Counted from the stretch's first letter, positions 5,631 to 58,459 are shown. The stretch is 64,000 bases of DNA from Bacteroidales bacterium (GCA_041907825.1 JAYRGN010000002.1:124924-188923); one strand, 5' to 3'. Notes: a model not told the origin generated them from the letters alone. Numbers and translations: made by a program.

Positions 5631-7508
5631 TTAGTTGTTACTTAGTGTGTGGAAATCAAGGTGAGAGCTTTGAATAGGTGTGTGGTAAACCCGGTTGGTT
5701 GCCTTGATAAAATCTTCGGCTTTTGCTTTGTAAATGTTTTCAATGTATTTCTGCGGATTAATATCGGCAAGCGGAAACCATGTGCTCTGAATCTGCATCA
5801 TTATGCGGTGTCCTTTCAGAAAACAGTGTAAAACATCCTGTAAATCAATTTCTATTTCCTCGACTTTTCCTGCTTCGAACGGAACCGGATGCTCAAAACT
5901 TTTGCGGTAACGTCCGCGTAAAATTTCGCTGCGAACCATCTGTTGATATTCACCCATTTTCATGCCCTTAGCTGTCGACGGATTTTGCGGTGCATAAGCA
6001 GGGTAAACATCAATCAGTTTTACTGCGAAATCGGCATCTGTACCGGTTGTGGAAACGAATAGCTTTGCTTTTAACGGACCTGCAAGTGTAATATCACTGG
6101 TCAACGAGTCTGTTTCAAAAACTAAAACGTCCGGGCGGTGGGCGGCAAAACGCTGATCGTCGGTCATGTAATTGCGGGCCATACCAAACGAAATTTCTTC
6201 GGTATAAGGAACCGGTTTTGCAGGATCGCTAATGTATTCGTCATAAGGTATTTCATTTTTGGTTACAGGTTCAAATGAAAGTTTATTATGATCGTGCAGA
6301 AACAGCTTTCTTTCTTCGATATTTCTGGGTGGCCAGCAATCAAATTGTTTCCATTCGTTTTTTCCTGTTTCAAACATCGTTGCCCGTGCAATGGAAGGAT
6401 TCTCTTTGTCTTTCAGGTAATAATTAAAAAAAGGAAGTTCGAGGCTGTCGCGATAGTAAAGTGAGGTTTTTTGTGCAAACGAAACATTTCCTAAAAAAGA
6501 GCCGTCGCTGCGAGCCCAGCCTCCATGGTACCAGGGACCAATCACAACCGAAATATTGCCTTTAGGACTGTTTTTTGTCATGGAATGATAGGTGTGAAAT
6601 GTCCCGTAAAGATCTTCGGCGTCATACCATCCGCCAACCAATAAAACGGCTGGTTTTATGTTTTTCAGATGAGGAATGATGCTGCGCTTTTGCCAAAATT
6701 CGTCGTAATCGGGGTGTTCGGTAATTTCGTTCCAGAAAATAATGCTGTCGCCAAAATATTGTTTGCGAGCATTGGCTAACGACCCCAACCGCAAGTAAAA
6801 GTCGTATCCATCGGGGGATTCCCATTTGTAAAGATGTCTCCATTCGGTAGTTAAACCATGTCGGGGAAGATCCATATCGCCAAAGAAACCAAGGTTGGCT
6901 GCTGTAAAAAATGTTCCCTGATGGTGAACATCGTCGAAAAACCAATCGCCAATAGGAGCCTGTGGCGATACACATTTTAAAGCCGGATGTGCATTAATGG
7001 CAGCACAAGACGTGTAAAATCCCGGATACGAAATGCCCCACATTCCAACACGTCCGTTGTTGTTGGGAATATTTTTTACCAGCCAGTCAATAGCATCGTA
7101 AGCATCAGAGCTTTCGTCAACCTCTTTTTTTGACTTTTTATTTTCGATGAAAGGAGTCATGTGAACGAAAGTTCCTTCGGACATAAATCGACCTCTTACA
7201 TCCTGATAAACAAAAATATAACCTTCCCTTAAAAAGGCAGACGAAAGTCCACGACTAAAGTTAAACTTCATTTCTTTTCCGTAAGGAGCCACATTGTAAG
7301 GCGTCCGGTTGAAAAGTATCGGGTACTTTTTGCTTTGATCGACAGGCGAATATACGATTGTAAATAACGTTACACCATCGCGCATCGGTATGCGGTATTC
7401 AGCTTTCGTATAATGCTCAGTCAGATAAAGTGAATCTTCGTTAACAACGGTTTTTGCCGCTGAGATGCTGCAATAAAACAGCGTCAGTAAAAAAAAGAGG
7501 TTTCTCAT
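5631..7508 (-). CDS. CocE/NonD-family serine hydrolase, Xaa-Pro dipeptidyl-peptidase (S15)-like, secreted
   Basis: ORF 5631..7541; likely start at ATG 7508 giving signal peptide MRNLFFLLTLFYCSISA; nucleophile-elbow GISYPGFY; family-typical VYQDVRGR and YDAIDWL blocks. Confidence 0.8.
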   Translation of the reverse strand: MRNLFFLLTLFYCSISAAKTVVNEDSLYLTEHYTKAEYRIPMRDGVTLFTIVYSPVDQSKKYPILFNRTPYNVAPYGKEMKFNFSRGLSSAFLREGYIFVYQDVRGRFMSEGTFVHMTPFIENKKSKKEVDESSDAYDAIDWLVKNIPNNNGRVGMWGISYPGFYTSCAAINAHPALKCVSPQAPIGDWFFDDVHHQGTFFTAANLGFFGDMDLPRHGLTTEWRHLYKWESPDGYDFYLRLGSLANARKQYFGDSIIFWNEITEHPDYDEFWQKRSIIPHLKNIKPAVLLVGGWYDAEDLYGTFHTYHSMTKNSPKGNISVVIGPWYHGGWARSDGSFLGNVSFAQKTSLYYRDSLELPFFNYYLKDKENPSIARATMFETGKNEWKQFDCWPPRNIEERKLFLHDHNKLSFEPVTKNEIPYDEYISDPAKPVPYTEEISFGMARNYMTDDQRFAAHRPDVLVFETDSLTSDITLAGPLKAKLFVSTTGTDADFAVKLIDVYPAYAPQNPSTAKGMKMGEYQQMVRSEILRGRYRKSFEHPVPFEAGKVEEIEIDLQDVLHCFLKGHRIMMQIQSTWFPLADINPQKYIENIYKAKAEDFIKATNRVYHTPIQSSHLDFHTLSNN

Positions 7509-7850
7509 CTTGTAAAGATTTTGTCTGCAAAACTTAATCACAAATGTATGCTTTGTGGAAACTTTTAAAAATAATCAGCATGATTTTAATTATAGGGGGT
7601 CTGACATGGAATTTTTTTCAAAAAAGCAGAAGATGCTGCTGTTTTTTCCAGGGGTAAAGAGCCTCTTTGATTTTTCTTACAGAAATGTCTCTCTAAAAAA
7701 GAAAACAAAACAGAAATGTCTTGAAATTTAATGAATTTTATAGTGTAATATTCTTATTATCAAGTTTAAACAAGATTGGCACGTGTTCTGTAATGAATTC
7801 GCGGTTTTGAATAAACAGATAGAAAAGACCTTTACTTAAAAAATATAGAG

Positions 7851-8438
7851 ATGAACTTGAAAAATTATGTATTGCTTAGCCTGTGTGTAATGTTTGCAGG
7901 CAATTTAATGGCGAAAGATTCTAAGAATCTTGTTTCGGGAGTATATCTGACGTATAACGATTTTAAATGTAACAAACTTGCCCATGAAGCAGTTGCCGGA
8001 AAGGAACGTATTAAAACTTACGATGCGTTTGGTTTTTCTTTTATTAAAGTGATTTGTGGCGACCAATCGTATGTATATCCCAAAAGTAATATTTATGGAT
8101 ATGCTGACAATAAAGGAGTTACTTATCGTTTTTTTAATCAGGAGAAATATAAACTGGAGAGTACCGGAAATCTGTTTATATATTCCCGAAATGCAGAGGT
8201 TAAGAAGGGATCTTTAAAAAATGTAACCATAGCAATTGAAACAAAGTATTTTTTCAGTCTGAAAGGCGATTCTGAGATAATGCCTCTGACCCTTTACAAT
8301 GTGAAAAAGACATTCATTGCAGATGCTAAAATTCAGACTATGCTGGATGAAAAATTTAAAACCGACGAAGATTTAGCTCAGTACGACCCGGTGAGGGGAG
8401 AATACCGTTTATGTTGTTTGCTATCAATCGAAAAGTAG
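7851..8438 (+). CDS. hypothetical secreted protein
   Basis: 195-aa ORF with signal peptide MNLKNYVLLSLCVMFAGNLMA, followed by a terminator hairpin. Confidence 0.6.
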   Translation: MNLKNYVLLSLCVMFAGNLMAKDSKNLVSGVYLTYNDFKCNKLAHEAVAGKERIKTYDAFGFSFIKVICGDQSYVYPKSNIYGYADNKGVTYRFFNQEKYKLESTGNLFIYSRNAEVKKGSLKNVTIAIETKYFFSLKGDSEIMPLTLYNVKKTFIADAKIQTMLDEKFKTDEDLAQYDPVRGEYRLCCLLSIEK

Positions 8439-8488
8439 AGTTTCCATAGTTGGTTTTAGTCTACATAGACGTAAACTTCGTAGTTTTT

Positions 8489-8523
8489 CAGGGTCGCTTA
8501 AAAGAAAGCGACCCTGTTTTTTT
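8489..8523 (+). terminator. intrinsic terminator after 7851..8438
   Basis: Stem cagggtcgc / gcgaccctg followed by a T7 run. Confidence 0.8.
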
Positions 8524-10767
8524 CTATTTTATAGATGCGTTCCAAGCCGGCGGGTTGCAGTTTAACAAATGCTGAACAAAAAAATCGCGGCGCTTGCGTT
8601 CGCCGTAAGTTCCACCAAGGGTGTGGTTCATTTCCGGTAAGACAACCAATTCAAAGTCCTTCTTTGCATTAATCAACGCATTGGCAACCTGCATGGTAGA
8701 AGCCGGATCGACGTTATCGTCCATTTCGCCAACAATTAACATCAGGTTCCCTTTTAGTCGCCATGCATTGTCAACATTCGAGCATTCAGCATATTGCGGG
8801 CCAATCGGATAACCCATCCACTGCTCGTTCCACCACATTTTGTCCATGCGATTGTCGTGACAGCCGCACGAAGCCACCGAAGCTTTGTAAAATTCGGGAT
8901 GAAAGAGCACGGCCGCCATTGCGTTCTGGCCTCCGGCCGACCCGCCAAAAATACCAACGCGCGTGGTGTCCATGTACGGATATTTTTCGGCCGCAGCCTT
9001 CGTCCATTTGATGCGGTCGGGAAAGCCGGCGTCTTTCAAATTTTTGTAACACACATTTTGAAAGGCTTTTGAGCGATACGAAGTTCCCATACCGTCAATC
9101 GACACAATGATGAATCCCAGCTCGGCCAGCCCCGAAAACGGATAATAATATGGGCGGAAAGTCTTCGAAACGAAAGCGCCCTGTGGCCCGGCATAAATGT
9201 ATTCGATAATGGGATATTTTTTGTTCGGGTCGAAATTGCTTGGGCGATAGATATTTCCCCAAATTTCGGTTTTACCGTCGCGTGCCGTAGCCGTAAAAAC
9301 TTCGGGCAAGCGATAGCCGGTTTTAAGCAAAGCTGAAATGTCCGCTTTTTCGAGCGAGAGAAGCGCTTTTCCGGTTTTGCCGTCGCGCAGTACCGATTGC
9401 TGCGGCTGGTCGGCTCGTGAGTAACAATCTACAAAGAACTTATAATCAGGCGAAAAGCTTGCATCGTGATTTGCACCTTCGGGCGTAAGGTCGGTTAAGT
9501 TTGTTCCATCAAAATTAACTATATAATAATGAATAAGATACGGGTCTTCGCCCGGATTTTCCCCACTTCCTTTAAAAAGAATGGTGCGGCTTTTTTCGTC
9601 AACGTTTACAACTTCGCGTACAACCCATTCACCATTGGTAATCTGATTCTTAACCTGTCCGGTTGAGCCATCGTACAGGTACAAATGGTTCCAGCCATCG
9701 CGTTCCGACGCCCAAATAATTTCTTTACCATCGTTTACGTCCGACCGGAATTTTTTTCCGCTGTAATCAATAAACGTATTGCTGTGTTCTTTAATCAGTT
9801 CCGTAGTCTGACCCGTAATAGCGTTAACTTCAACTACTTTGTAGTTTTGATGGCCGCGTTCGTTAAATTCGAACGTAAAAGCTCGACTATCTTTAAACCA
9901 ATGTAAATCGCTGATTTCGAACTGATTTTCGTAAGCCTTCGTGTCAACCGGAATTTGTTTTTTGTCGGCTACACTAAAAAGCGACGGCATGCGAATGGGC
10001 AGCGCGTCGCCGGGCTTGAGGTAATCGCGTTTCTGCAAAATAGGCTGTAGCTGCGTTTTGGGCGACGATTCCACAAAATAAATATACTTCTTCGTATTAG
10101 CTCGTACTTTATTGGTAACAAGATGTTTAGAGTCGGGTGCCCACTCAATAAACGACGAATAGAACTCGCCTTCGGAACCGTCGAAACTCAGAGCCGTTTC
10201 TTCGCCGGTTTTGCGGTTTTTCAGGTAAACGTTGTAGTTTTTGATAAAGGCAATCCACGCGCTATCGGGCGAAACGACAGGCGGATTTTTGGTATCGTCA
10301 AAAAAGGCATTCCAGTACTCGTTGGTCTGTGCTTCAATTTTACCTTTGTTAATTATTTGATAATTAGAAAGTTTACATTCATATCGAAAACTATCTACAA
10401 CAAAATTGAAACTTTTAAAGGAAGCATCAAACTTTAACTCCTTGATTGGCAAGGCAAAAGCTTTGTACGATTTGTGTGTCAAACTGTTGAGGCTCTGAGC
10501 CAGTTTCACCTGATCGAAAGCTTCGGCCTTCTTCAAACTTTTGGCATCGACCAACATATATTCCTGACCTTTAGGAGTATGCACTTCGTACCAAAAATGA
10601 GTTCCTTTCTCGTCCCACTTAGGCGAAATGGCTCCGTGGTAAACCAGTTTGCTCCAGTTTTCGGTCGAGTCGGCCCGCTGATAGTCCGACAGGCTAACCT
10701 GAGCTAATAAATTGGTTTGCAGCAATATAAAAATTGCCGTCAGTAGTTGCATTGTTTTGTTTCTCAT
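8524..10767 (-). CDS. dipeptidyl-peptidase IV family (S9B) prolyl peptidase
   Basis: 747 aa; signal peptide; long N-terminal beta-propeller-type region; catalytic-domain motif GIFGGSAGGQNAM (GxSxGG) plus later D and H blocks (VGEMDDNVD, MNHTLGG). Confidence 0.9.
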   Translation of the reverse strand: MRNKTMQLLTAIFILLQTNLLAQVSLSDYQRADSTENWSKLVYHGAISPKWDEKGTHFWYEVHTPKGQEYMLVDAKSLKKAEAFDQVKLAQSLNSLTHKSYKAFALPIKELKFDASFKSFNFVVDSFRYECKLSNYQIINKGKIEAQTNEYWNAFFDDTKNPPVVSPDSAWIAFIKNYNVYLKNRKTGEETALSFDGSEGEFYSSFIEWAPDSKHLVTNKVRANTKKYIYFVESSPKTQLQPILQKRDYLKPGDALPIRMPSLFSVADKKQIPVDTKAYENQFEISDLHWFKDSRAFTFEFNERGHQNYKVVEVNAITGQTTELIKEHSNTFIDYSGKKFRSDVNDGKEIIWASERDGWNHLYLYDGSTGQVKNQITNGEWVVREVVNVDEKSRTILFKGSGENPGEDPYLIHYYIVNFDGTNLTDLTPEGANHDASFSPDYKFFVDCYSRADQPQQSVLRDGKTGKALLSLEKADISALLKTGYRLPEVFTATARDGKTEIWGNIYRPSNFDPNKKYPIIEYIYAGPQGAFVSKTFRPYYYPFSGLAELGFIIVSIDGMGTSYRSKAFQNVCYKNLKDAGFPDRIKWTKAAAEKYPYMDTTRVGIFGGSAGGQNAMAAVLFHPEFYKASVASCGCHDNRMDKMWWNEQWMGYPIGPQYAECSNVDNAWRLKGNLMLIVGEMDDNVDPASTMQVANALINAKKDFELVVLPEMNHTLGGTYGERKRRDFFVQHLLNCNPPAWNASIK

Positions 10768-10787
10768 CTAATATTTCTTTTGCGGTT

Positions 10788-13151
10788 TTACATGGTTTCG
10801 TGTTCGGTACGGCAAATGATCTCATTTTGAAGATCTTCGCCCAAATCGTTAAAATAATCGCTGTACCCGGCAACGCGGACAATCAGGTCGCGGTGGTTTT
10901 CGGGATGCAATTGCGCATCACGCAGTGTATCAGCCGATACGACATTAAATTGAATATGGTGCCCGTCCATTCTGAAATAGCTGCGCACAAGCTGCACCAT
11001 GTTGCGGATGGCTTCGTCGTCCTCGAAAAATTCGGGCGCAAATTTTTGGTTCAGCAATGTGCCGCCGGTGCGCAAATGGTCAATCTTGGCCGCCGAGCGA
11101 ATAACCGCTGTCGGGCCGCAATGGTCGGCACCCTGAACCGGCGAAATGCCTTCGGACAAAGCGATGCGCGCCTTCCGGCCGTCGGGCAGCGCTCCGGTTA
11201 CTTTGCCAAAATACACGTGGCAGGTGGTCGGGAGCAAATTGATGCGATGGACACCGCCCCTTGTGTTGGGCTTTCCGTTAATTGCATCGTAGTATATTTC
11301 AAACACTTTGCAAAGTTGAGCGTCGGCAGCATCGTCGTCGTTGCCATATTTGGGCGTGTTGTAAATCAGTTCGTAACGCAGTTTTTCGAAGCCTTCAAAG
11401 TTGGCACTTAGAGCTTTAAGCATCTCAGACATCGAAACAGCTTGTTTGTCGTAAACCTGAAATTTCATGGCAGCAAGACAATCGGTAATAGAACCTAGCC
11501 CAACTCCCTGAATATAAGTAGTATTGTAACGAGCACCGCCGGCCACGTAATCCATACCTTTGTCGATGCAGTCGTCGATAAATAACGATAGAAAGGGGAC
11601 AGGCAGATTGTTGGCAAAAATTCGTTCTATAATATTGTTACCCTGTATTTTAATGTTGATAAAATATTCGATCTGGCGGCGAAAAGCATCGAGCAACATG
11701 GTGTACGAACTGAAGGTTTCGGGATTGCCGGTTTCGAGTCCTATTCTTTTACCCGAACGCGGGTCGACGCCGTTATTCAACGTAATTTCGAACACCTTCG
11801 GAAGGTTGAAATAGCCCGTAAGTATGTATGCTTCAGTGCCAAATGCACCAGCTTCCACGCAACCGCTCGCTCCGCCACGGCGGGCATCAATCAGGTCTTT
11901 TCCCTGACGGAGATGTTCCTGAATGATGGCGTCGGTGTTGAAAATGGAAGGCTGGCCAAAACCTGTTTTTACAATTTTCATCACACGTTCGAGCATGCGG
12001 TCGGGATTCTTTTTCGAAACCTGAACCATCGAGCTGGGTTGCAGCAAACGCATTTCTTCAATAACGTCCATTATCATGTATGTCATGTCGTTACAAGCAT
12101 CGCTGCCATCGTCTTTTACTCCGCCAAGGTTGATAAGGCAAAAGTCGGTGTATGTGCTGCTTTCTTCGGCCGTTACGCCCACTTTGGGTGGCGACGGGTG
12201 GTTGTTGAACTTCACCCAAAATGCTTCTAAAAGTTCAATAAAGAGCTCTCTATCAAAGGTTCCGTCGGCTTCTTCTTTTAGGTAAAATGGAAAAAGATGC
12301 TGGTCGAGACGGCCAGGGTTGAACGAATCCCACGGATTGAGCTCGGTAACCACGCCCAAATGCACAAACCAGTAATACTGAAGCGCTTCGTGAAGATTTT
12401 GCGGCGCATGGGCCGGAACCCTCCGGCAAACCTTGGCCATTGCGCTCAATTCGGCACGGCGATTTGCATTTTTTTCATTTACAGCCATTTGATCGATGTC
12501 CTCGGCATGGCGTTCGGCCCACATAACCAAGGCATTGGCTGTAATTTCCATAGCCTTAAGCTCTTCGCGTTTTTCGTATGCCTTAGCATCGTTTACAAAA
12601 TCGAGTTTGGAAATGCTTTCGTGTATGTCGTTGATAATGTCGAACATACCTTTGTGGTAAATTTTGTTGCCACAAACGGTATGTCCCGGAGCCCGTTGTT
12701 CTTGAAATTCAGTAAAAATACCGGCTTCGAACGCAGCGTGCCATTCGGGGCTCATGGCGTTCATTATCTTTTCGCGATTGGTTTTGCCAGCCCAAAACGG
12801 AATGATGGTTTCCTCGTAATTCTTCATGGTTTCGGCATCCACTTTAAACGAAACCTTTGGGCGCGAGTCTAAAATTTCGAGGTCGTGCCGCGTGTGCACA
12901 CAAATTTCCGGATATGTGGGAGTTGCCTTAGGTGCAGGTCCGCGTTCGCCCACTATCAATTCGTCAGCGCCAATGTAAATATGTTTGTGCCGAAGAATGT
13001 ACTCGAACGATTTTGCCCGCGTAACCGGTACTGAAAGGCCGCGCGATTCTTCACTTTTGTAAAATTCAGTAATCAATAAAGCCCGTTCGGCTGAAATACG
13101 GTTAACGGCATTGATGCTCTCGTTACGAAGTCGTTTTATTCTGTCGTTCAT
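10788..13151 (-). CDS. glycyl radical enzyme of the PFL-like dehydratase/lyase class; candidate trans-4-hydroxy-L-proline dehydratase (HypD-like)
   Basis: 787 aa; C-terminal glycyl-radical fingerprint LIVRVAGYSDYF; active-site loop GASGCVEAGAFG (Cys-x-Glu); the blocks EQRAPGHTVCG, WDSFNPGRLDQHL and FWVKFNNHPSPPKVG match my recollection of HypD sequences. The GRE call is firm (0.95); the subfamily call is tentative (about 0.5). Confidence 0.9.
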   Translation of the reverse strand: MNDRIKRLRNESINAVNRISAERALLITEFYKSEESRGLSVPVTRAKSFEYILRHKHIYIGADELIVGERGPAPKATPTYPEICVHTRHDLEILDSRPKVSFKVDAETMKNYEETIIPFWAGKTNREKIMNAMSPEWHAAFEAGIFTEFQEQRAPGHTVCGNKIYHKGMFDIINDIHESISKLDFVNDAKAYEKREELKAMEITANALVMWAERHAEDIDQMAVNEKNANRRAELSAMAKVCRRVPAHAPQNLHEALQYYWFVHLGVVTELNPWDSFNPGRLDQHLFPFYLKEEADGTFDRELFIELLEAFWVKFNNHPSPPKVGVTAEESSTYTDFCLINLGGVKDDGSDACNDMTYMIMDVIEEMRLLQPSSMVQVSKKNPDRMLERVMKIVKTGFGQPSIFNTDAIIQEHLRQGKDLIDARRGGASGCVEAGAFGTEAYILTGYFNLPKVFEITLNNGVDPRSGKRIGLETGNPETFSSYTMLLDAFRRQIEYFINIKIQGNNIIERIFANNLPVPFLSLFIDDCIDKGMDYVAGGARYNTTYIQGVGLGSITDCLAAMKFQVYDKQAVSMSEMLKALSANFEGFEKLRYELIYNTPKYGNDDDAADAQLCKVFEIYYDAINGKPNTRGGVHRINLLPTTCHVYFGKVTGALPDGRKARIALSEGISPVQGADHCGPTAVIRSAAKIDHLRTGGTLLNQKFAPEFFEDDEAIRNMVQLVRSYFRMDGHHIQFNVVSADTLRDAQLHPENHRDLIVRVAGYSDYFNDLGEDLQNEIICRTEHETM

Positions 13152-13209
13152 GATGTTATGTTTTTCTTTTTTTGTTCAGATTTACTAAAGGTTGAATGTG
13201 CAAATGCAC

Positions 13210-14010
13210 TCACCCGCCAATTTTTACCCGAAATCCGTCTTGCTTAAATAAGTCGACAAAAGCGTGTAAGTCTTCCTTTTTCAGGCCTTTAACATTTTCG
13301 GGCATGCGACTTTCTATATCAAAACGCTTGTATTTGTTTCGGGCAATGGTGTGGTAAGGAAGTAGGTCGATTTGTTCAATATTCCCGGTTAACGACTTTA
13401 ATAACAATAAAATATCCATCATGTCGTTTTCGTTAAAATTAAAACCTGGAATAACCGGAATCCGTATGCGGACGCGTTTTTTCCGACTCAGTACAAACGC
13501 AAGGTTGTCGATTATAGGCTGAAGCGTAACTCCCGTTGCATCAATGTGTTTCTGAGGATTAGCATGTTTTAGGTCGAATAAAAAAATGTCGGTATACGGA
13601 AGGATCTCTTTGTAAACACTTTGTGCCGCAAAACCGCTGGTGTCGACCGCCGTGTGCAGTCCCTCTTTTTTACACTCCTGCAAAAGAGCAAGCAGAAACT
13701 CCGGCTGAAAAGTAGGCTCGCCTCCCGAAAATGTAACGCCACCGCCAGAATCTTCCATAAACAGCCTATCTCTAACAATTTGCTTTACAACAAATCGACT
13801 ATCCATAAGTTGTCCGGCAGTTTCGGCCTGATTAAATTCAAATCCGTCGAGCTTTACTTTTTTTACAGTGCTAACAGGTTCATGGGTAATACCTTCCGGG
13901 TTATGACACCACAAACATTTAAGCGGACAACCTTTCAGGAATACCGTTGTGCGGATACCCGGCCCGTCGTGCACTGCAAATCGTTTGATATCGAAAACGA
14001 TTCCTTGCAT
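13210..14010 (-). CDS. glycyl-radical enzyme activating protein (radical SAM), PflA-like short form
   Basis: 266 aa; CPLKCLWCHNPE (CxxxCxxC) cluster motif; GGGVTFSGGEP SAM-binding motif; C-terminal VKIGG; lies 58 bp upstream of the GRE on the same strand. Confidence 0.9.
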   Translation of the reverse strand: MQGIVFDIKRFAVHDGPGIRTTVFLKGCPLKCLWCHNPEGITHEPVSTVKKVKLDGFEFNQAETAGQLMDSRFVVKQIVRDRLFMEDSGGGVTFSGGEPTFQPEFLLALLQECKKEGLHTAVDTSGFAAQSVYKEILPYTDIFLFDLKHANPQKHIDATGVTLQPIIDNLAFVLSRKKRVRIRIPVIPGFNFNENDMMDILLLLKSLTGNIEQIDLLPYHTIARNKYKRFDIESRMPENVKGLKKEDLHAFVDLFKQDGFRVKIGG

Positions 14011-14213
14011 GAATTAAAATGAAAAAATTGAACAGAGATACCTATTGAAAAGCAATAAGACTCCTCTTTATGTAATTGATTTATTGATAATTAAAGACAT
14101 AGAACTTGTCTTTGCAGAAAGGAAAGTAGGCTCATAAAATCCAGCATTCGTACAAACCCTTGCCGAATTGATGATAAAGTGTATTTTGGTATTTATTACA
14201 TTCCATATAAAGT

Positions 14214-14221
14214 CAAAAATA
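14214..14221 (-). promoter_or_regulatory. -7 box TAttTTTG, candidate promoter of the activase-GRE operon (long leader)
   Basis: Plus-strand caaaaata. This is the nearest full TAnnTTTG match I found by eye upstream of ATG 14010, about 200 nt away. Confidence 0.3.
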
Positions 14222-14462
14222 CATATTTTTCTGAATATTTATAATTTTTCAAAATTTTGTTGAATATTAGAAATAAGTTATAAAATGCAACATAAATAGA
14301 CTTTTATCATTAATATTTATTTTTATGACTAATATATTTGATAAATCTGTTATGAGCGTATAACTCGATATTTTTATTCTTCACTGACCGGACAGTAAGG
14401 TTAGTCCTGCCTGATTTTTACTTTATAGTTTAGTAGTAAAATTTATTTTAATCTTTCTTATA

Positions 14463-15296
14463 ATGAAAAAGATAGGATTGTATTTGCTCTCACTTTTGTT
14501 CTTGTTTGTATATGTAGACAAAATAAAAGCAGTAGAAGAAATTTCGACTGAAAAATCTGCTGATTCTCTTGTTATTACTGCTCCTCCCGTCGTTTTAAAT
14601 CTGGATCCATTTTATAAAAAATATATTGATGCCAATGGAATTCCAATTGTAAGTTCGTGGCGGGTACCGAACAGAGCAATCTTGCAGGCCCGGTCTATAG
14701 TTGTTTATATGACAAGCATTTTGCCTAAACCCGTTCTTGATAAAATGAAAGCTTCTAAGCTTAGGGTTGGTGTGATGGGACGTTATGAGGGAACCACGAA
14801 TATTCCTGAACATCATCATCTTGTAAATGATACTTCTTTAAATTGGGATCTTCGGGCCCGCGGACTTGGTGGTGATCTGGAACTTCCGCTTACGACTTGT
14901 GCCGAAGAAAATTTACTTTGCTATCAGATTGATAAATATCATGCTGAAGATATTCTTATACACGAATTTGCACATTCTATTCATTTAATTGGAATCGTTC
15001 AGGTTGATACAACTATAAATACCCGGTTGCAAAGCGCGTTGAATGCTGCTAAAGCTGCTGGCAAATGGAAAGACACTTATGCTGCCACCGACATATACGA
15101 GTATTTTGCAGAAGGCGTTCAGGATTGGTTTAATGTTAATGCGGAAGTGCCTGTGCCAGATGGTAAACATTGCTATGTAAACACTCGTGATGAGCTGAAA
15201 GATTATGATCCAACGTTATATGCAATTATAAAAGAATATTTTTCGGAAACTACCGATTGTATAAGCTGCCATTCCATTCCTTTCAATAAAAAATAA
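14463..15296 (+). CDS. putative secreted zinc metallopeptidase (HExxH)
   Basis: 277 aa; signal peptide; ILIHEFAHSIH (HExxH) followed by EYFAEGVQDWF, a gluzincin-like arrangement. Confidence 0.55.
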   Translation: MKKIGLYLLSLLFLFVYVDKIKAVEEISTEKSADSLVITAPPVVLNLDPFYKKYIDANGIPIVSSWRVPNRAILQARSIVVYMTSILPKPVLDKMKASKLRVGVMGRYEGTTNIPEHHHLVNDTSLNWDLRARGLGGDLELPLTTCAEENLLCYQIDKYHAEDILIHEFAHSIHLIGIVQVDTTINTRLQSALNAAKAAGKWKDTYAATDIYEYFAEGVQDWFNVNAEVPVPDGKHCYVNTRDELKDYDPTLYAIIKEYFSETTDCISCHSIPFNKK

Positions 15297-15533: not shown

Positions 15534-16934
15534 CTATTCTTTTCTTTTGAGTGTAATCATAATAACGCCGTTTCGCCCATCTTCTCCGTAGGTTATAATG
15601 GCGTTTTCATTTTTTAACACACTGATCGACTCAATATCCTCTGAATTTATTTTACCGATCTCTTTAAAAGAAGTTCTTTTTCCGTTTACAATACAAAGTG
15701 GTTGATTTGTATTGTTTTCTTGTTGCTGGTCTTTATGCGAAACAACCACACACAGCGTTTTTTTGTTTTCTGAAGAAACCGTGATGGCTTTGGTTGAGTC
15801 ATTGCAAACCGTGATGGTTGTACTTGTATTTGCCAGATTCTGATCTTTAACGTCCTTTATAGTAATTTGTTTTCCATTAACATAAACAGTTGTATTCTCT
15901 GGTAATGAATTGACTGTTACTTCAACGGGTGGAACAGGTGGAGCAGGAGGCATAGGCGGAGTAGTGGGTGCGGATGCTATTGGCTCTGAAACCAGTGTAT
16001 CAGTAAGTGATGCAGAACCTGGCTGAGTGGTGTTGGCTTGTATTGCGTTTTGAACGGATGAGGTTTGTGCAATAACAGTTCTTTCGGTTGTTGCGGTAAG
16101 AACAAACACTACAGCTACCGGCACGAGGAGCGCAAAGTTTTTCAATAGGTGCCATTTCGGAGATTTAGACTTGTTCATCATTTTGATTCGTTTTTTTAAA
16201 AGATTGGTAATAAAATGATTGGCAATCAACAGGCGTTGCCCGCCCATTGCTGTTTGCAGAAGTGAGTATTGGTAGCTTCTGGCTTCTGTTCCATTTATGA
16301 TGATTTGATTGTCAACAATATACTCATGATTTTGAGCAATTGCTTTTTTTAACCACCAAGCAAACGGATTGAACCACTGAACCATTACAATCATTTCGGC
16401 AAGAAACAGATCAAACGAATGGTACTGCTGGCAATGTACCGTTTCGTGCTGAACTATTTGTTCGATATCGGGATGTTCCCTGTATTTATCGGGAACGACG
16501 ATCCATTTGATTAATGAAAATGGTAAAACATTTATTGGCGTGATTGCGAGTATATTCTTACCAAGTTTCTGTTTGTCGGCATTCTTTACAAGCTGAAAAA
16601 CTTTTCGGTATGCCCAAATGAGGCGAAACAGCATAATCAAAATTCCTGTTAAGAATGAGAAAGTGAATAAGTTGTAAAATAAGTCAGTACGAGATAATGT
16701 TGACGAATGAGCGGTGCTGGTGGTAACCTGAAGGGCTTCAACTGGTAAATATACCACGTGTGTGCGAAACGGAATATTGATAAGCGGAATGAGGAACGGT
16801 GCAATTAATGCACATAATAAATAAAACCGATTGCGTACAAACAGTGTGTCGTTGCTAAATAGCAGCTGGTACCCAATATAGAAAATGGATATCCCTAAAG
16901 CTACTTTCAGATTATAAGCGAGCAGCGTGTTCAT
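15534..16934 (-). CDS. BlaR1/MecR1-like M56 peptidase signal transducer with Pro-rich linker and TonB-dependent-receptor-plug-like C-terminal domain
   Basis: 466 aa; N-terminal TM helices; HETVHCQQYH (HExxH) and downstream NHEYIVDN; linker PTTPPMPPAPPVPPVEV; C-terminus SEDIESISVLKNENAIITYGEDGRNGVIMITLKRKE; 4-nt overlap with the upstream BlaI-like gene. Confidence 0.85.
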   Translation of the reverse strand: MNTLLAYNLKVALGISIFYIGYQLLFSNDTLFVRNRFYLLCALIAPFLIPLINIPFRTHVVYLPVEALQVTTSTAHSSTLSRTDLFYNLFTFSFLTGILIMLFRLIWAYRKVFQLVKNADKQKLGKNILAITPINVLPFSLIKWIVVPDKYREHPDIEQIVQHETVHCQQYHSFDLFLAEMIVMVQWFNPFAWWLKKAIAQNHEYIVDNQIIINGTEARSYQYSLLQTAMGGQRLLIANHFITNLLKKRIKMMNKSKSPKWHLLKNFALLVPVAVVFVLTATTERTVIAQTSSVQNAIQANTTQPGSASLTDTLVSEPIASAPTTPPMPPAPPVPPVEVTVNSLPENTTVYVNGKQITIKDVKDQNLANTSTTITVCNDSTKAITVSSENKKTLCVVVSHKDQQQENNTNQPLCIVNGKRTSFKEIGKINSEDIESISVLKNENAIITYGEDGRNGVIMITLKRKE

Positions 16935-17293
16935 TTTTTTCCTTTTTCGATCAGATTAATAATTTCTTTTAAGTCGTCGACGCTAAGTTTCTCTTCCTGA
17001 GCAAAAAATGAAACAATTTCTTTATAAGAATTTTCAAAATAACTGTCAACAAAGCCCGAAAGGAAATTGCTGGTATATGCTTCTTTTGTGATAAGCGGAT
17101 AATACTCGTATGTGTTGCCATAGGTTTTATGATCGACATAATTTTTAGCTTCGAGGCTGCGAATAAGCGATGAAATTGTATTGTAATGAGGTTTTGGGTC
17201 GGGAAAATTGTCGAGAACATCTTTTGCAAATCCTTTTTCTATTTTCCAGAGTGCCTGCATTGCTTTTTCTTCTTGTCTTGTAAGCTTTTCCAT
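16931..17293 (-). CDS. BlaI/MecI/CopY-family transcriptional repressor
   Basis: 120 aa; winged-helix N-terminus LTRQEEKAMQALWK...YNTISSLIRSLEAKNYV; paired with an M56 transducer, the classical arrangement. Confidence 0.9.
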   Translation of the reverse strand: MEKLTRQEEKAMQALWKIEKGFAKDVLDNFPDPKPHYNTISSLIRSLEAKNYVDHKTYGNTYEYYPLITKEAYTSNFLSGFVDSYFENSYKEIVSFFAQEEKLSVDDLKEIINLIEKGKK

Positions 17294-36590: not shown

Positions 36591-38318
36591 ATGAAAACAA
36601 CGATGTTAACGGCTTTGCTGGCCGCAACTGTATTTTGCTGTAATGCTCAGCAGAATAGCGAGAACATTAAGCTAAATCAGTTAGGTTTTTTCCCGGAAGG
36701 GCAAAAAATAGCTATTGTAACTAATTCTAAATCGGAAGATTTTGAAGTAAAAACAGCAGACTTGAAAACTACTGTTTTTAAAGGAATGTTAAGCCCGGAA
36801 AAAGAATGGAATAAATCGGGCGAAAAGGTTAAACTGGCTGATTTTTCTGCATTTAATAAACCTGGAAAATATATTCTGGTTGTAAAAGGAGAAGTACAAT
36901 CGTATCCTTTTTTGATCGGAGAAACGGTGTTTGAAAATGTAGTAAAAGGATCATTGAAAGCGTATTATTACAATAGGGCATCAATAGAGCTTTTACCAAA
37001 ATTTGCAGGAAAATATGCAAGGCCCGAAGGTCATCCTGATACTCAGGTTGTCGTACTCCCTTCGGCTGCTTCCGATAAACGCCCGGCAGGAACTGTAATT
37101 TCAACACCTGGAGGTTGGTATGATGCTGGTGATTATAATAAGTATATTGTTAATTCTGGAATAAGTACCTATACGTTATTACTGGCTTACGAAAATTATT
37201 CATCGTTATTAGATACGTTGCAATTTAATATTCCCGAAAGTGGCAACGGAATGCCTGATATACTGAATGAAGCGTTATGGAACATTCGCTGGATGACCAC
37301 CATGCAGGATCCAAACGACGGAGGTGTCTACAATAAAACCACCAATGCAAGTTTTGATCCTATGGTATTGCCACATCTTTGTAAAACAATGCGCTATGTT
37401 ACAGCAAAAGGAACGGCTGCGGCCCTCGATTTTGCTTCGGTGATGGCTGTTTGTTCGCGTGTTTATAAAAAATATTTGCCGGCATTTGCCGATAGTTGCC
37501 TGAAACGTGCGTTGTTAGCTTGGAACTGGGCCAAAGTAAATCCGAATAAACCGTTTACCAATCCGAAAGAACAGGATGGTTATCCTGGCGTTGTTACCGG
37601 AGAATATGGCGATCCTCATTTGGCTGACGAATTTCAGTGGGCTGCGGCAGAACTTTATCTGGCTACCGGTAATGATTTGTATTATAACGAAATTGGCCTC
37701 GAAAAATCTGGGTTTACCGTGCCTTCGTGGGGAGATGTCCGCACACTCGGTTTACTCTCAATGGCAGCATGCCCAAAATTTCCTACATCTGTTGCTGACG
37801 CTCAATTAGTAAAAAAACAGTTGCTGGTACTTGCTGATTCGCTAAAAGATTTTCAAATGAAAAAGTCTCCTTATAAAATTAGTATCGATAGTTTTGTATG
37901 GGGAAGTAATTCAGATGTAGCCAATCAGGGTATGATTCTTATGATGGCGTACAAGCTTACTCATAATGTTGATTATCTGAATGCTGCGCTTTCGAATGCC
38001 GATTATCTGCTTGGGCGTAATGCTACTGGTTATTGTTTTGTAACGGGTTTTGGTTTGCGTTTTCCTCATCATGTTCATCATCGTCCTTCCGTTGGTTATG
38101 GATTTGAAGAATCGGTTCCCGGCTTTTTATCGGGAGGTCCAAATCCCTATAATCAGTACGATTGCCAGGGCGTAAATAATGCATATCCAACCTCGTTACC
38201 AGCTAAATGTTTTGCCGATAATATTTGCAGTTATTCGACTAACGAAATAGCAATTAACTGGAATGCACCGTTGGTATTTCTTACCAGTGCTTTACAATCA
38301 ACATTTCTTGATAAATAA
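36591..38318 (+). CDS. glycoside hydrolase family 9 endoglucanase with N-terminal Ig-like domain
   Basis: 575 aa; signal peptide; GH9 signature GGWYDAGDYNKY; later HHRPS and NEIAINWNAP catalytic-region blocks. Confidence 0.9.
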   Translation: MKTTMLTALLAATVFCCNAQQNSENIKLNQLGFFPEGQKIAIVTNSKSEDFEVKTADLKTTVFKGMLSPEKEWNKSGEKVKLADFSAFNKPGKYILVVKGEVQSYPFLIGETVFENVVKGSLKAYYYNRASIELLPKFAGKYARPEGHPDTQVVVLPSAASDKRPAGTVISTPGGWYDAGDYNKYIVNSGISTYTLLLAYENYSSLLDTLQFNIPESGNGMPDILNEALWNIRWMTTMQDPNDGGVYNKTTNASFDPMVLPHLCKTMRYVTAKGTAAALDFASVMAVCSRVYKKYLPAFADSCLKRALLAWNWAKVNPNKPFTNPKEQDGYPGVVTGEYGDPHLADEFQWAAAELYLATGNDLYYNEIGLEKSGFTVPSWGDVRTLGLLSMAACPKFPTSVADAQLVKKQLLVLADSLKDFQMKKSPYKISIDSFVWGSNSDVANQGMILMMAYKLTHNVDYLNAALSNADYLLGRNATGYCFVTGFGLRFPHHVHHRPSVGYGFEESVPGFLSGGPNPYNQYDCQGVNNAYPTSLPAKCFADNICSYSTNEIAINWNAPLVFLTSALQSTFLDK

Positions 38319-53538: not shown

Positions 53539-54417
53539 TTAATATTCCCAAAGATCTTGTTCGTATTCAAAAATACTATTTTTGATTCTCTCTGATTCAT
53601 ATAACTGATGAACGTTCTGAGTATATTCCTGAATTTGACGATTGTCATAAACGTTTGATTCTGCAATAATTCGACTTCCGAACCTTCTTTGTAAGAAGAA
53701 ATCATCGAATGAAATGGGCTGAGAATCGTTATTAGTATTATAAACCATATGGTTGGCGAAAAGCGGTCTTACCTCAGGAAAGTAGATCCAGAAAGTTTGC
53801 GTTTTAACCAACTCATCAGTTGGGTTCCCATTTTGATCTTCTCTGTATGTAATACGAATAGGGCATAAACCTATTATACGTACTTGTAATGTTGAGTAAT
53901 TGCGATCAAAAAACCAACGTTCTTTAATTAAAAGCTGTTTAACATCGTCTTTGCGACGTTTAAATTGAACAACAGTGTCTTTTGATTCTCCTTGTTCATT
54001 TGTTGCTTTTATCCTTTTTTCTCCAGCACCCATTAATCTTTCAAGCTTTTCTTTAGTAATAACTTGCTTGAACTCATTTTTTGTGTCAATATCAGGGTCG
54101 TAAGCTGTCAAATTATACTTATCAATACCTTCCAGTAAAAGGTCAATAAGACTCATTCTGTCCCCAATAGGTCGTGTCGGAAAATATAAAGGCAAATTTT
54201 GTTTTTCCCTTAGGTCTACTATTCTCCAAATTGTTTTTGACCACATTACATCTGCCTCACGTGTATAAGGGTAAGGAACTAGTTTCTTGTTCGGTATGTG
54301 TTCATTTACATACACTTCTTTCAGGCGATCAACATTGTCCTGAGCGTACACCCCTGTTGTAGCCAGTAACATGGTTATTCCAATAAATAAAAACGATTTT
54401 GCCTTCATAGCGTACAT
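53539..54417 (-). CDS. gldN: gliding motility / T9SS protein GldN (PorN)
   Basis: 292 aa; signal peptide; last gene of the gldK-L-M-N cluster; conserved ERWFFDR and WIYFPE blocks. Confidence 0.85.
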   Translation of the reverse strand: MYAMKAKSFLFIGITMLLATTGVYAQDNVDRLKEVYVNEHIPNKKLVPYPYTREADVMWSKTIWRIVDLREKQNLPLYFPTRPIGDRMSLIDLLLEGIDKYNLTAYDPDIDTKNEFKQVITKEKLERLMGAGEKRIKATNEQGESKDTVVQFKRRKDDVKQLLIKERWFFDRNYSTLQVRIIGLCPIRITYREDQNGNPTDELVKTQTFWIYFPEVRPLFANHMVYNTNNDSQPISFDDFFLQRRFGSRIIAESNVYDNRQIQEYTQNVHQLYESERIKNSIFEYEQDLWEY

Positions 54418-54426
54418 TTTTTTCTA

Positions 54427-56049
54427 TTATTTCAATGTTATAGTAACAGGCGTTAATTCACGAACTTGTGTTCCTACAACTGCTTTTATTTCACTAAAAT
54501 ATAATTTAGTGTTTTTTGCTCCTCTGTTGATATATTCTTCCATTTCCGTAGTTAATTTGTTGGATTTGGAAACAGATTCTTTATTATACCCTCCAACTGT
54601 CAATTCCATTTTAAATGAAACAACACGGCAATTAAGTTCAAAATCAAAATTTTCCATTTGAGCAATGGCAAAAGGTGAAGCAAGAAGCATCTCTTTCGAT
54701 AATCCACCACCTTTAGATCCGCCTATTTTTGCAACAGGATCTGGTACTCCTTTTACTCGAAATGTTTTAGTTCCAATTACTTTTTTAGAGCCTTCTATTT
54801 CTGCATAAATTGTTATAACAGAAGATGTTCCATTTCCTGGATTTACCGCCCAGCCACCGTCCGCGGTTTTATTTATAGCCCCATTCGTAATAGTAGCAGA
54901 TATTTTATCAGAAGGAATACCTGGCACAGAAATATCTACAGGATTACCTCCCGGGACATCACGGTAAAATACATTCATTTTACTAGCTGATATTACAGCT
55001 GAAGGTTCGGATACTTGATATTCTGCACGAAATGATCGTGTTATATCAGCTCCACCATTGGGCGATTTTAACTTTATAAGACCACCCCACTTCCGGGAAC
55101 CTACCGCCCCACCTGTAACTGTATAGACTCCTTTGCCGTTTTTAACGGGAACAGTTTCATATGGTTGTCTCATTTTTAATATGTACGAACCATCGGGCTG
55201 GCGTATAGAATCATAAGACCCTATACAAATTTCTGGATTTTGAGTAGAATCGGATGCAGCAATAAAAATTTGGGCAGAATATTGATTTCCTTTTAAAACA
55301 TAATTAGATTTTGGTAATACAACTGCTTCTAATTTATTGAAAGTAAAGGCTCCTGCATCAATACTTGCATATAAATAGCGAAGAATGTCAGATTCGGCAT
55401 TTCTAACATTAGCTTGAAGACCAGATAATTCTGTAATAATTGCAATCAACGGAATATGCTCAAAGTTTTCTGTTTCCCAAGTCTTTCTTTCTCCATCTGG
55501 AGCAAGAGGAGGATCTTTCGTTTCTAAACTTTTTTCAATAGATTCTTTTACACTTTCAGCTTTTGGATCAAGCATCCCTACAAAAAAGGAATTAAGTTCT
55601 CCTATTTTTTTTCGCAAATCTTTAGATTTACCCTTGTTAATCATGATATTGGCAGGAATATCTTGGTTATCCTTTGAGTTGATTTTTAGAGGGTTTATTT
55701 TCCCTCCTTCTTCAATCGCTTCTGCTTTTTTTCCATCAGCCGTGGTAATTATCTCTATTTTTAAAGATTGAATATAATCTATTACCTCTTTTGTCTGTTT
55801 TTGAACTTGGTGAGCTAAATCTACATATCTTCCAGCCTTTGCATGATTTGTTATGTCTGCCTGAGCAAATGCAGAGTACATTAACTCATTTTTATCTTTA
55901 AAATTTTCAGTTGTTTTTGTCAAACCTGTATCTACATTAACAAAAGCGTTTAGTACTTCTTTTTGAACATTCAATGCTAACATTGCAGTCAAAAATAAGT
56001 ACATCATACCTATCATTTTCTGTCTAGGTGTCTCTTTTCCGTGCCCCAT
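54427..56049 (-). CDS. gldM: gliding motility / T9SS protein GldM (PorM)
   Basis: 540 aa; characteristic N-terminus GKETPRQKMIGMMYLFLTAMLALNV; single TM helix plus long periplasmic region. Confidence 0.92.
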   Translation of the reverse strand: MGHGKETPRQKMIGMMYLFLTAMLALNVQKEVLNAFVNVDTGLTKTTENFKDKNELMYSAFAQADITNHAKAGRYVDLAHQVQKQTKEVIDYIQSLKIEIITTADGKKAEAIEEGGKINPLKINSKDNQDIPANIMINKGKSKDLRKKIGELNSFFVGMLDPKAESVKESIEKSLETKDPPLAPDGERKTWETENFEHIPLIAIITELSGLQANVRNAESDILRYLYASIDAGAFTFNKLEAVVLPKSNYVLKGNQYSAQIFIAASDSTQNPEICIGSYDSIRQPDGSYILKMRQPYETVPVKNGKGVYTVTGGAVGSRKWGGLIKLKSPNGGADITRSFRAEYQVSEPSAVISASKMNVFYRDVPGGNPVDISVPGIPSDKISATITNGAINKTADGGWAVNPGNGTSSVITIYAEIEGSKKVIGTKTFRVKGVPDPVAKIGGSKGGGLSKEMLLASPFAIAQMENFDFELNCRVVSFKMELTVGGYNKESVSKSNKLTTEMEEYINRGAKNTKLYFSEIKAVVGTQVRELTPVTITLK

Positions 56050-56070
56050 TTTATACTAGAAAAAGTAGCG

Positions 56071-57030
56071 TTAACGTTTAGATGCATTCATTGCAGAAAG
56101 CATATTACCATAGATAGTATTAAGACTAGCTAAATTTTGGCTAAGTTTTGCTATCTCTTCACGATAAAGCTTCGTTTCGTCAACTGAAGATTGTAAATTT
56201 TTGAGCATCTCTTCCATTCCTCCGTAGAGTTGCTCTGTATTTTTTAAACTTTCTTGTGTCCCTTTTAATTGTAATTCATAAAGGGCATTAAGTTGGTCTA
56301 AATTTAATGTTAACTGATCTAATTTTTGTCCGTAACTTTTTCCACCTTCTGAAATTGAATTGTAATAAGCAGAAATTGAGTCGGTTAGCTTCTTGTAATT
56401 GTCTGTTAATAATGAACTGGAATTATTAAGCTGTTCAGCAACATGTTGCCCTGATTGTTCTACAATTCCTGCAACTTTTACATAGGAGTTACTTAATGCT
56501 CCCATTGCTGTATGTAATGTTTCGGTTGATGAAGAATAAGAATCAGTTAATTTGTCAAATGTCTGAGCTGCATTTTTTAAATTTTCTGAATATTGCTGAG
56601 CTGCAACGGTCGATTCTGTAATATCTGAAATTTTAGAAGCAGCTGATCCTAATTTTGAAAGACCTTCACCAACTCGATCTATCGCTTCTTCTGAGATATT
56701 GGATCCTCCAACTAGAGCGTCAAAACGTTCTAAATTTGTGCGATTCCCAATAATACCTTCCTTATAGGATTCCATTTCATCATCTTCTGTCATCCCTGCC
56801 AGTTCAGGGTATACCAAAGTCCAATCGAGTTCTTCATGTAATGGCTCAAACGCTGAGAAAAAGAAAATTAAGGCTTCTGTACATAAACCGACTGTAAGCA
56901 TAATCCCTGCACCAGGCCAATGCTGAATTTTGAATAACGCACCGATTAACACTACAGTTGCTCCCCAACCATAGACTTTTGCCATAAATTTTTTCCATCC
57001 AGTTGTCTCTACGAGCTCAGAAATATTCAT
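56071..57030 (-). CDS. gldL: gliding motility / T9SS protein GldL (PorL)
   Basis: 319 aa; characteristic N-terminus KFMAKVYGWGATVVLIGALFKIQHWPGAG...EALIFFFSAFEP (two TM helices) and a coiled-coil tail. Confidence 0.92.
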   Translation of the reverse strand: MNISELVETTGWKKFMAKVYGWGATVVLIGALFKIQHWPGAGIMLTVGLCTEALIFFFSAFEPLHEELDWTLVYPELAGMTEDDEMESYKEGIIGNRTNLERFDALVGGSNISEEAIDRVGEGLSKLGSAASKISDITESTVAAQQYSENLKNAAQTFDKLTDSYSSSTETLHTAMGALSNSYVKVAGIVEQSGQHVAEQLNNSSSLLTDNYKKLTDSISAYYNSISEGGKSYGQKLDQLTLNLDQLNALYELQLKGTQESLKNTEQLYGGMEEMLKNLQSSVDETKLYREEIAKLSQNLASLNTIYGNMLSAMNASKR

Positions 57031-57050
57031 GATCTAATAATTACTTGTTG

Positions 57051-58385: not shown

Positions 58386-58459
58386 ATTAAAAATATATTA
58401 CTCCTCAAAAAAAGTATAGGCGCTAAAATTAACTATTATTTTGAAAATAGGAATCCTCC

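Follow-up and report, generated by a model that had tools for sequence, protein, structure and literature searches.

The stretch of DNA analysed here, hereafter the window, comprises 64,000 nucleotides of a Bacteroidales bacterium (GCA_041907825.1, JAYRGN010000002.1:124924-188923) and carries a glycyl radical enzyme (GRE) gene flanked by genes for two secreted peptidases. On the minus strand, the gene of a radical S-adenosylmethionine (SAM) activase (13210-14010, 266 aa, Radical_SAM and PFLE_PFLC domains in Pfam and NCBIfam) is followed, after 58 bp, by the gene of the GRE (10788-13151, 787 aa, PFL-like and Gly_radical domains) and, after a further 20 bp, by that of a serine peptidase of family S9B (8524-10767, 747 aa, DPPIV_N and Peptidase_S9 domains). 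An earlier note on this DNA had described these three genes, and its gene order, coordinates and gap lengths were all reproduced in our table of open reading frames (ORFs). It had missed a fourth gene, orf277 (14463-15296, plus strand, 277 aa), which lies just outside the span it considered and is divergent from the activase. The product of orf277 is a predicted secreted zinc metallopeptidase, with an HEFAH motif at residues 167-171, Y206 and E213.

A hairpin scan found no terminator-like structure in the 58-bp or the 20-bp gap, as the note had stated. A GC-rich hairpin with an 11-bp stem (8489-8516) separates S9B from the convergent gene orf195, at 8 nt from the stop codon of S9B; a scan for Bacteroidota-type -7 motifs found none on the minus strand within hypD. 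Because the gaps are short and terminator-free, a hairpin follows S9B and no such motif lies in hypD, we consider activase, hypD and S9B to be an apparent three-gene operon, whose co-transcription we infer from this layout; the 20-bp gap in particular, being devoid of terminator, implies a transcript shared by hypD and S9B, and the hairpin probably marks where the transcript of all three genes stops. The activase and orf277 are separated by an AT-rich intergenic region of 452 bp (14011-14462; the 1-kb bin 14001-15000 that includes it has a GC content of 0.315), where each strand has a -7 motif: TATTTTTG at 14214-14221 on the minus strand, upstream of the activase, and TATATTTG at 14333-14340 on the plus strand, upstream of orf277. 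These are matches to the consensus only, not enriched over shuffled sequences, and are used as positional hints; a sigma-70 promoter scan was likewise not enriched over shuffles. The minus-strand unit and orf277 apparently share this single divergent control region. The same gene order is present on a contig from a second strain of this species (L163, JGI sample 3300048576), which is 96-99% identical to the window.

The identity of the GRE was examined with family models, solved structures and active-site residues. The protein passes the HypD equivalog model NF043068 (1237.1 bits for a cutoff of 1100, over residues 2-785 of 787) and scores far below the cutoffs of all other GRE equivalogs of NCBIfam. 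Its best solved relative is the HypD of Clostridioides difficile (6vxc, 1015 bits, 54.7% identity), the second best being glycerol dehydratase, at 497 bits. The residues that bind the substrate or take part in catalysis in C. difficile HypD are known from Backman et al. 2020 (PMC7077986). All 15 of them (F152, R156, H160, W277, D278, K326, S334, D339, F340, C434, V435, E436, Y450, T645 and G765 in 6vxc numbering) are identical in the window protein, where their counterparts include H157, D275, S331, D336, F337, C431, E433, Y447, T642 and G762. The glycyl radical loop RVAGYS carries G762, and the Cys-x-Glu loop GCVE carries C431 and E433; these two motifs, as well as EQRAPGHTVCG, WDSFNPGRLDQHL and FWVKFNNHPSPPKVG, all of them quoted in the earlier note, are present in the alignment with 6vxc. 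Related GRE families that act on other hydroxyproline (Hyp) isomers do exist (PMC13450708), and the enzyme might in principle act on one of these, as do HplG, HpyG and HpzG, or on another substrate in the manner of the diol dehydratases. The scores against these structures are 457 bits for HpyG (8id1), 421 for HpzG (8iof) and 393 for HplG (7vua), compared to 1015 for 6vxc, and together with the equivalog results and the complete set of Hyp-binding residues this makes such an alternative very improbable. Given the equivalog score and the conservation of all Hyp-binding and catalytic residues, we conclude that the GRE is, by sequence, a bona fide HypD orthologue, i.e. a dehydratase of trans-4-hydroxy-L-proline. 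The HypD-like, dehydratase-class assignment proposed earlier is thereby supported, and the enzyme does not fall in a clade with a different substrate.

The activase scores 278 bits against the GRE-activase model TIGR02494, above its cutoff of 174, and 268 bits against the Clostridial T4HPD activase equivalog, which is below the cutoff of 425 and is matched in two stretches. It is a short form of the enzyme, in which CPLKCLWC is the single radical SAM motif and ferredoxin-like clusters of cysteines are lacking. The median activase length over 73 related loci is also 266 aa; the HypD activases of this Bacteroidota-type clade are proteins of about 266 aa with the CxxxCxxC motif only, lacking the ferredoxin-like auxiliary-cluster insert found in the Clostridial HypD activase model. 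HypD and its presence in Bacteroidetes were already known (PMC6219649). Compared to the C. difficile cluster of HypD, HypD-AE and pyrroline-5-carboxylate (P5C) reductase (PMC7077986; PMC6219649), the window has an orthologous enzyme with an identical active site, an adjacent activase and, as predicted from these residues, the same chemistry, the conversion of Hyp into P5C. Unlike that cluster, it has neither an adjacent proC nor a Stickland context, its activase of about 266 aa is devoid of the ferredoxin-like clusters, and it includes a secreted peptidase in the operon and a second one in divergent orientation.

We then surveyed the surroundings of HypD in GTDB, using one genome per species. 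At least 582 relatives were found, and the best 80, with 64-77% identity and mostly from Bacteroidota, were analysed. An activase is encoded upstream of HypD in 73 of these 80 loci; apart from this, the neighbourhoods are highly variable (79 species-level loci). Peptidase genes recur among them: an S9B peptidase occupies the position next to HypD (+1) in six loci, AMP_N-bearing M24 proteins, of the Xaa-Pro amino- or dipeptidase type, are found near HypD in ten, S28/S37 peptidases in eleven and M24 proteins with a creatinase-N domain in four, while M64 peptidases lie upstream in nine and C69 and M20 dipeptidases recur as well. Proline-specific exopeptidases (S9B, M24 with AMP_N, M24 with creatinase-N, S28/S37) account for 27 of the 227 genes at positions +1 to +4, versus 4 of the 296 genes located at a distance of at least five genes (Fisher p = 3e-7, a rough statistic, as relatives share synteny), and at least one is found at +1 to +4 in 18 loci out of 69. 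The general idea of the earlier note, a link between prolyl peptidases and HypD, is therefore supported by this enrichment; the identities it had given to the two peptidases, DPP-IV and a second Xaa-Pro dipeptidyl peptidase, are not, as detailed below. Homologues of orf277, of the S15 gene and of orf195 were absent from the 80 GTDB loci.

Two further arrangements were observed in this survey. A second HypD context, which constitutes another link between peptidase, glycosidase and HypD, has the order EamA, M64 (IgA-hinge-type peptidase), activase, in some cases an outer-membrane barrel, HypD, GH31, major facilitator superfamily transporter and transglutaminase-like protein (L010, L013, L014, L018, L021, L043, and in part L058 and L063). 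In addition, genes of the proline racemase family (Hyp epimerase-like) and of the ornithine cyclodeaminase/mu-crystallin family stand beside HypD in L048, L050, L078, L080, L075 and L076, from some Bacteroidota and Calditrichota.

The S9B protein has a signal-peptide-like N-terminus, a DPPIV_N propeller (8.5e-48) and an S9 catalytic domain (3.4e-44), with a catalytic triad, S610/D683/H715, that is invariant within its clade. Its best solved relative is PTP-A of Porphyromonas gingivalis (2d5l, 189 bits), bacterial DPP-IVs scoring 160-168 bits. With PTP-A and the DPP-IVs 5olj and 7y4f it has in common the propeller and alpha/beta-hydrolase architecture, the Ser-Asp-His triad and secretion, but identity is only about 25-28%. 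The nucleophile motif is GGSAGGQ and the S1 segment reads CGCHDNRMDKMWWNEQW. For comparison we used the canonical S1 pocket of human DPP-IV (GWSYGG, W659, Y662, Y666 and others). In the catalytic domain, which is well aligned, most of the proline-pocket positions are changed: GWSYGG is replaced by GGSAGG, Tyr631 by Ala611, Val656 by Cys636, Trp659 by Asn639, Tyr662 by Asp642, Asp663 (which corresponds to Glu636 of PTP-A) by Lys643, and Tyr666 by Trp646. Non-hydrophobic residues stand at four of the five canonical S1 positions. The Y631/W659/Y662 to A/N/D changes set the protein apart from PTP-A and from bacterial DPP-IVs alike. In the propeller, where the alignment is weak, the segment between DG and WxPDS has 11 residues and no EE pair, for 22 residues in PTP-A and about 32 in branch B of the S9B clade, so that the stretch expected to bear the Glu-Glu anchor (DWVYEEE-type) for the substrate N-terminus is some 11-21 residues shorter. 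This branch B, characterised by GHSAGGY and HDHRMxKAWWPE, retains the propeller insert and lies directly downstream of HypD in L032, L050 and L053; the window protein belongs to branch A, whose signatures are GGSAGGQ and CGCHDNRMDKxWWNEQ.

A canonical DPP-IV was rejected on account of the GGSAGG motif and the altered S1 pocket, the best match being PTP-A. Of the "secreted S9B DPP-IV" described earlier, a secreted S9B peptidase with an intact triad remains; the DPP-IV label does not, since the pocket differs and the anchor for the substrate N-terminus appears to differ too. The wider and more polar pocket predicted from these replacements may suit a 4-hydroxylated ring. The DPP-IV of Stenotrophomonas maltophilia reportedly accepts Hyp at P1 (a finding attributed to Nakajima et al. 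2008), and this acceptance is said to be linked to the replacement of Tyr631, beside the nucleophile, by Asn611. That enzyme resembles S9B in having a smaller or polar residue at this position (Ala611 in S9B), and is otherwise canonical, whereas S9B is altered in most of the pocket.

The neighbourhoods of S9B were collected by a metagenome scan with the clade alignment, which yielded at least 561 relatives, the best 80 of which (46-64% identity) were inspected. Neither HypD nor activase was found within 10 kb of S9B in any of these 80 closest relatives, and a role of the S9B clade as dedicated partner of HypD was rejected on this basis. Within two positions of S9B (79 loci), the most frequent genes are those for beta-L-arabinofuranosidases of the glycoside hydrolase (GH) family GH127 (15), EamA (12) and the orf277 family (10), followed by sulfatase (8), GH27 alpha-galactosidase (4) and DUF5695 (2). 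The closest relatives have the order GH127-(GH27)-S9B-orf277 on one strand. In L082, orf277 and S9B are divergently adjacent as in the window, with no activase-hypD between them. This arrangement, and the higher GC content of the activase-hypD cassette (0.43-0.49, versus 0.32 in the flank), are consistent with an insertion of activase-hypD into a pre-existing orf277/S9B pair. Another branch of S9B shows the order thiamine pyrophosphate enzyme, S9B, EamA transporter and sulfatase, with no GH127 (L094, L101, L103, L104, L107-L109, L113, L114, L116, L117, L140), which means that the S9B clade is not confined to arabinoside loci.

The orf277 protein carries a signal peptide and had no match in Pfam or NCBIfam. 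It has 5515 homologues, all of them unnamed or mislabelled (the JGI label "alpha-glucosidase" on P0007, P0025, P0042, P0043, P0074, P0075, P0077 and P0106 is probably an annotation error). Across 36 homologues, no variation is seen at H167, E168, H171, Y206 or E213. When a family profile was searched against the PDB, it matched only the core of anthrax lethal factor (E = 0.09), with the HExxH motif and the Tyr...Glu pair aligned, and among the 36 homologues weak Pfam contacts were seen with ATLF (6) and M90 (15). An AlphaFold (AF2) model was obtained with pTM 0.74 and mean pLDDT 75. When this model was compared to the PDB with Foldseek, the top 33 matches were all Pro-Pro endopeptidases (PPEP-1/Zmp1, PPEP-2 and PPEP-3), and the first match outside this group was anthrax lethal factor; probabilities were about 0.9-1.0, yet E values ranged from 1e-3 to 1e-1 and TM scores from 0.35 to 0.56. 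Like orf277, the PPEPs and lethal factor (M34) are secreted and have HEXXH and a Tyr/Glu pair with the same 7-residue spacing. Differences are that orf277 has no significant match to M34 sequence models, that it is some 80 residues larger, with a poorly predicted insert at 108-159, and that its family occurs in glycoside hydrolase loci, not beside adhesin substrates. We read orf277 as a putative secreted zinc endopeptidase, remotely lethal-factor/PPEP-like.

Ten homologues of orf277, chosen for the length of their contigs, were surveyed in turn; the family is also present, with or without S9B, in the cultured relatives Mangrovibacterium and Saccharicrinis. GH127 is present within 8 kb in all ten, often in two or three copies, and GH27 in five. 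In six of the ten (L165, L167-L171), a member of the S9B clade is immediately upstream of orf277 or divergent from it; in L166, L168 and L169, a 357-aa M24 prolidase-type gene overlaps the orf277 stop codon. Several loci also contain GH43/GH51 arabinofuranosidases, hybrid two-component regulators and SusC/SusD. HypD and activase are present in three of the ten: the contig of P0004, whose orf277 is 90% identical, L166 and L169. The most complete is L169, with S9B-activase-HypD-GH127 on one strand and, divergently on the other, orf277-M24 followed by GH127, GH27, GH127 and GH51; its HypD keeps 15 of the 15 key residues. In L166, HypD-activase is divergent from orf277-M24-M24-GH127. The HypD of L166 (4585-6811, minus strand, 742 aa) lacks the C-terminal glycyl radical domain, with no equivalent of G762, and abuts a 57-aa fragment of indole-3-glycerol phosphate synthase (IGPS); it is probably a pseudogene or the product of an assembly break.

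Could the adjacency be devoid of any pathway meaning? A mobile activase-hypD cassette could have landed between two general secreted peptidases, orf277 and S9B, with HypD using imported free Hyp. The L082 pair with nothing in between, the variability of activase-hypD neighbourhoods, the absence of HypD beside close S9B relatives and the GC content of the cassette all go in this direction. However, the link recurs independently and in different orders, as activase-HypD-S9B in the window, as S9B-activase-HypD-GH127 in L169, as the divergent arrangement of L166, and with branch B peptidases after HypD in three GTDB loci. Proline-specific peptidases are moreover enriched downstream of hypD, and the 20-bp gap without terminator implies shared transcription. 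We therefore consider chance adjacency unlikely, and favour a functional link between HypD and the two peptidases.

The note had also included a gene for a secreted protein of family S15 (Peptidase_S15 and PepX_C domains), located on the minus strand at 5631-7541 if started from GTG, or at 5631-7508 from ATG. The ATG at 7508 gives a protein of 625 aa, equal to the gene call in L163. Against the two PepX models of NCBIfam this protein scores 57 bits for a cutoff of 642 and 25.9 bits for a cutoff of 881; only the generic CocE/NonD subfamily model is satisfied, and among solved structures the protein comes nearest to 4pf1 and to alpha-amino-acid ester hydrolases. These results do not support a second Xaa-Pro dipeptidyl peptidase. 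Upstream of the gene lies a separate -7 motif (7541-7548), a hairpin with a 20-bp stem (5627-5584) provides it with a terminator of its own, and no homologue was found near HypD, S9B or orf277 outside this species (80 HypD loci and 80 S9B loci). The idea that it supplies Xaa-Pro units to the pathway is not sustained by these data, and S15 is probably not part of the module.

We next considered the origin of the hydroxyproline. The earlier note had pointed to collagen-like substrates, with S9B and S15 releasing Xaa-Pro or Xaa-Hyp units from collagen or gelatin peptides and HypD consuming the Hyp. PTP-A, the closest solved relative of S9B, has been discussed in connection with collagen breakdown. 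HypD is genuine, and no source of Hyp is better known than collagen (PMC6219649). On the other hand, the S9B clade and orf277 are embedded among plant-type glycosidases (GH127, GH27, GH43, GH51), Pfam scans found no collagenase of family M9 or U32 in the window, S15 groups with the ester hydrolases, scores below the PepX equivalog cutoffs and is not linked elsewhere, and S9B lacks the canonical S1 residues of DPP-IV. A collagen-fed module is in our opinion a minority possibility. Because S9B and orf277 are linked with GH127, GH27, GH43/GH51 and M24 in related loci, the best-supported substrate is likely a Hyp-rich plant or algal glycoprotein such as extensin.

The enzyme set of the sister loci indeed matches the linkages of extensin-type glycoproteins and their Ser-Hyp4 backbone. 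Extensin serine carries alpha-galactose, which fits GH27. GH127 releases arabinose from Ara-Hyp, and the alpha-arabinose at the end of Ara4-Hyp is taken off by the GH43 enzyme HypAA (PMC6085000). Sister loci L164-L172 contain GH127 and GH43-type genes of families also present in the clusters (GH127/GH121/GH43 type) for Hyp-linked beta-L-arabinooligosaccharides, hypBA1/hypBA2/hypAA of Bifidobacterium longum and XeHypBA1/BA2/AA of Xanthomonas (PMC6085000, PMC7263609). A prolyl oligopeptidase gene is adjacent to hypAA in Xanthomonas and was suggested to serve the degradation of Hyp-rich glycoproteins (HRGPs) (PMC6085000), a likeness to the peptidase-linked sister loci. The Bifidobacterium and Xanthomonas clusters are described for arabinose harvest only, with no fate given for the Hyp backbone, whereas relatives of the window add peptidases and HypD; the window itself, unlike these clusters, has no GH127 and would represent the peptide/imino-acid half alone.

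Together, we propose that the region is a hydroxyproline-harvesting module made of two divergent units sharing an AT-rich control region, a reading to which we give a probability of about 0.55. In this module, the activase would install the glycyl radical on HypD. Glycosidases encoded elsewhere would first strip arabinose and galactose from the substrate, most likely an extensin-type glycoprotein of plants or algae with its Ser-Hyp4 backbone. The Hyp/Pro-rich polypeptide would then be nicked by orf277 outside the cytoplasm. The secreted S9B would trim the fragments, the small or polar S1 residues that replace the aromatic ones of DPP-IV leaving room for the 4-hydroxylated ring. After import, short peptides would be cleaved by a prolidase whose gene lies elsewhere in the genome, and cytoplasmic HypD would dehydrate free trans-4-hydroxy-L-proline to P5C, to be used by ProC or P5C dehydrogenase as housekeeping enzymes. 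A complete pathway would require glycosidases, prolidase, transporters and proC outside the 64 kb. Compared to the earlier note, the observation of the gene cluster stands, and its interpretation is retained only in part, S9B, S15 and the substrate having been corrected.

Several points weigh against this proposal. The S9B clade exists independently of HypD, orf277 is absent from the 80 GTDB HypD loci, and the three-way linkage is confined to few lineages. The structural matches of orf277 are weak (the best E values being around 1e-3), and about 40% of its model has a pLDDT below 70. With the Glu-Glu segment apparently absent and Lys at the position of PTP-A E636, S9B may remove dipeptides, tripeptides or other units. 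The window is devoid of GH127, GH27, M24, transporter and proC, so that the glycoprotein reading relies wholly on other genomes, and arabinans and arabinogalactans are further substrates of GH127, GH27 and GH43.

Concerning the missing genes, the window was searched with Pfam on the longest ORF per locus of at least 120 aa, plus some shorter ones, and by a six-frame scan with hidden Markov models. Neither P5C reductase, M24 prolidase, proline racemase nor ornithine cyclodeaminase was found in the 64 kb, and the six-frame translation of the window gave no M24, S28/S37, Pro_racemase, OCD, EamA, M64, C69 or M20. GH127, GH27 and DUF5695 were found neither in the window nor in the 80 HypD loci. The earlier note had rightly reported the lack of P5C reductase and prolidase in the window, and had seen in it either a gap in the pathway or an argument for a different substrate. 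This absence is uninformative, because HypD is rarely beside proC in these loci and M24 prolidase-type genes are present in sister loci.

Other genes of the window are mentioned briefly. The secreted product of orf195 (7851-8438, plus strand, 195 aa) has no family match; the gene is convergent with that of S9B, the two sharing the hairpin at 8489-8516, and a homologue was found only in L163 among the loci examined. At 15534-17293 (minus strand), the genes of a BlaI-type repressor and of an M56 BlaR1-like protein overlap, the M56 protein ending with an unusual combination of a SusC/RagA signature and a Plug-domain fragment. The segment 17594-21366 encodes a LiaF-TM protein, a His_kinase, a LytTR response regulator, a flavodoxin-like protein and a LiaF_C protein; in L099 and L102, a kinase/regulator pair resembling this one adjoins the S9B clade. 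Of glycoside hydrolases, the window yielded just one, a GH9 cellulase with a CelD_N domain (36591-38318, plus strand). Type IX secretion core genes, gldN, gldM, gldL, gldK and porP/sprF, are located at 53539-59458 (minus strand) and assign the organism to Bacteroidota.

HypD is among the most abundant glycyl radical enzymes of gut metagenomes, and its discoverers reportedly regarded its role in Bacteroidetes as poorly understood. No description of a linkage between HypD and peptidases, or HypD and GH127, was found in the literature searched, which omits most subscription journals; the operonic S9B clade, the PPEP-like family and the occurrence of both peptidases in common loci with GH127, GH27, M24 and HypD appear to be undescribed. 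A broader hypothesis, which we hold as tentative and rate below an even chance, is that the orf277 family and branch A of the S9B clade are the missing backbone-degrading enzymes for extensin-type HRGPs, the former as an endopeptidase for Hyp-Hyp/Pro-Pro and the latter as an exopeptidase that accepts Hyp, and that they form with GH127, GH27, GH43, M24 prolidases and, in anaerobes, HypD, a complete utilisation locus. If this were true, a protease-resistant protein of plant or algal cell walls would be converted into arabinose, galactose and P5C by means of a single locus. Two peptidase families physically tied to HypD and to glycosidases that strip arabinose from Hyp are in any case concrete, testable candidates, and the locus suggests a way in which anaerobes might acquire free hydroxyproline. 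Confirmation would explain the use of extensin and related proteins by anaerobic Bacteroidota, would give a function both to a large family with no counterpart in Pfam and to a divergent clade of S9B peptidases, and would supply enzymes for cutting Hyp-rich sequences.

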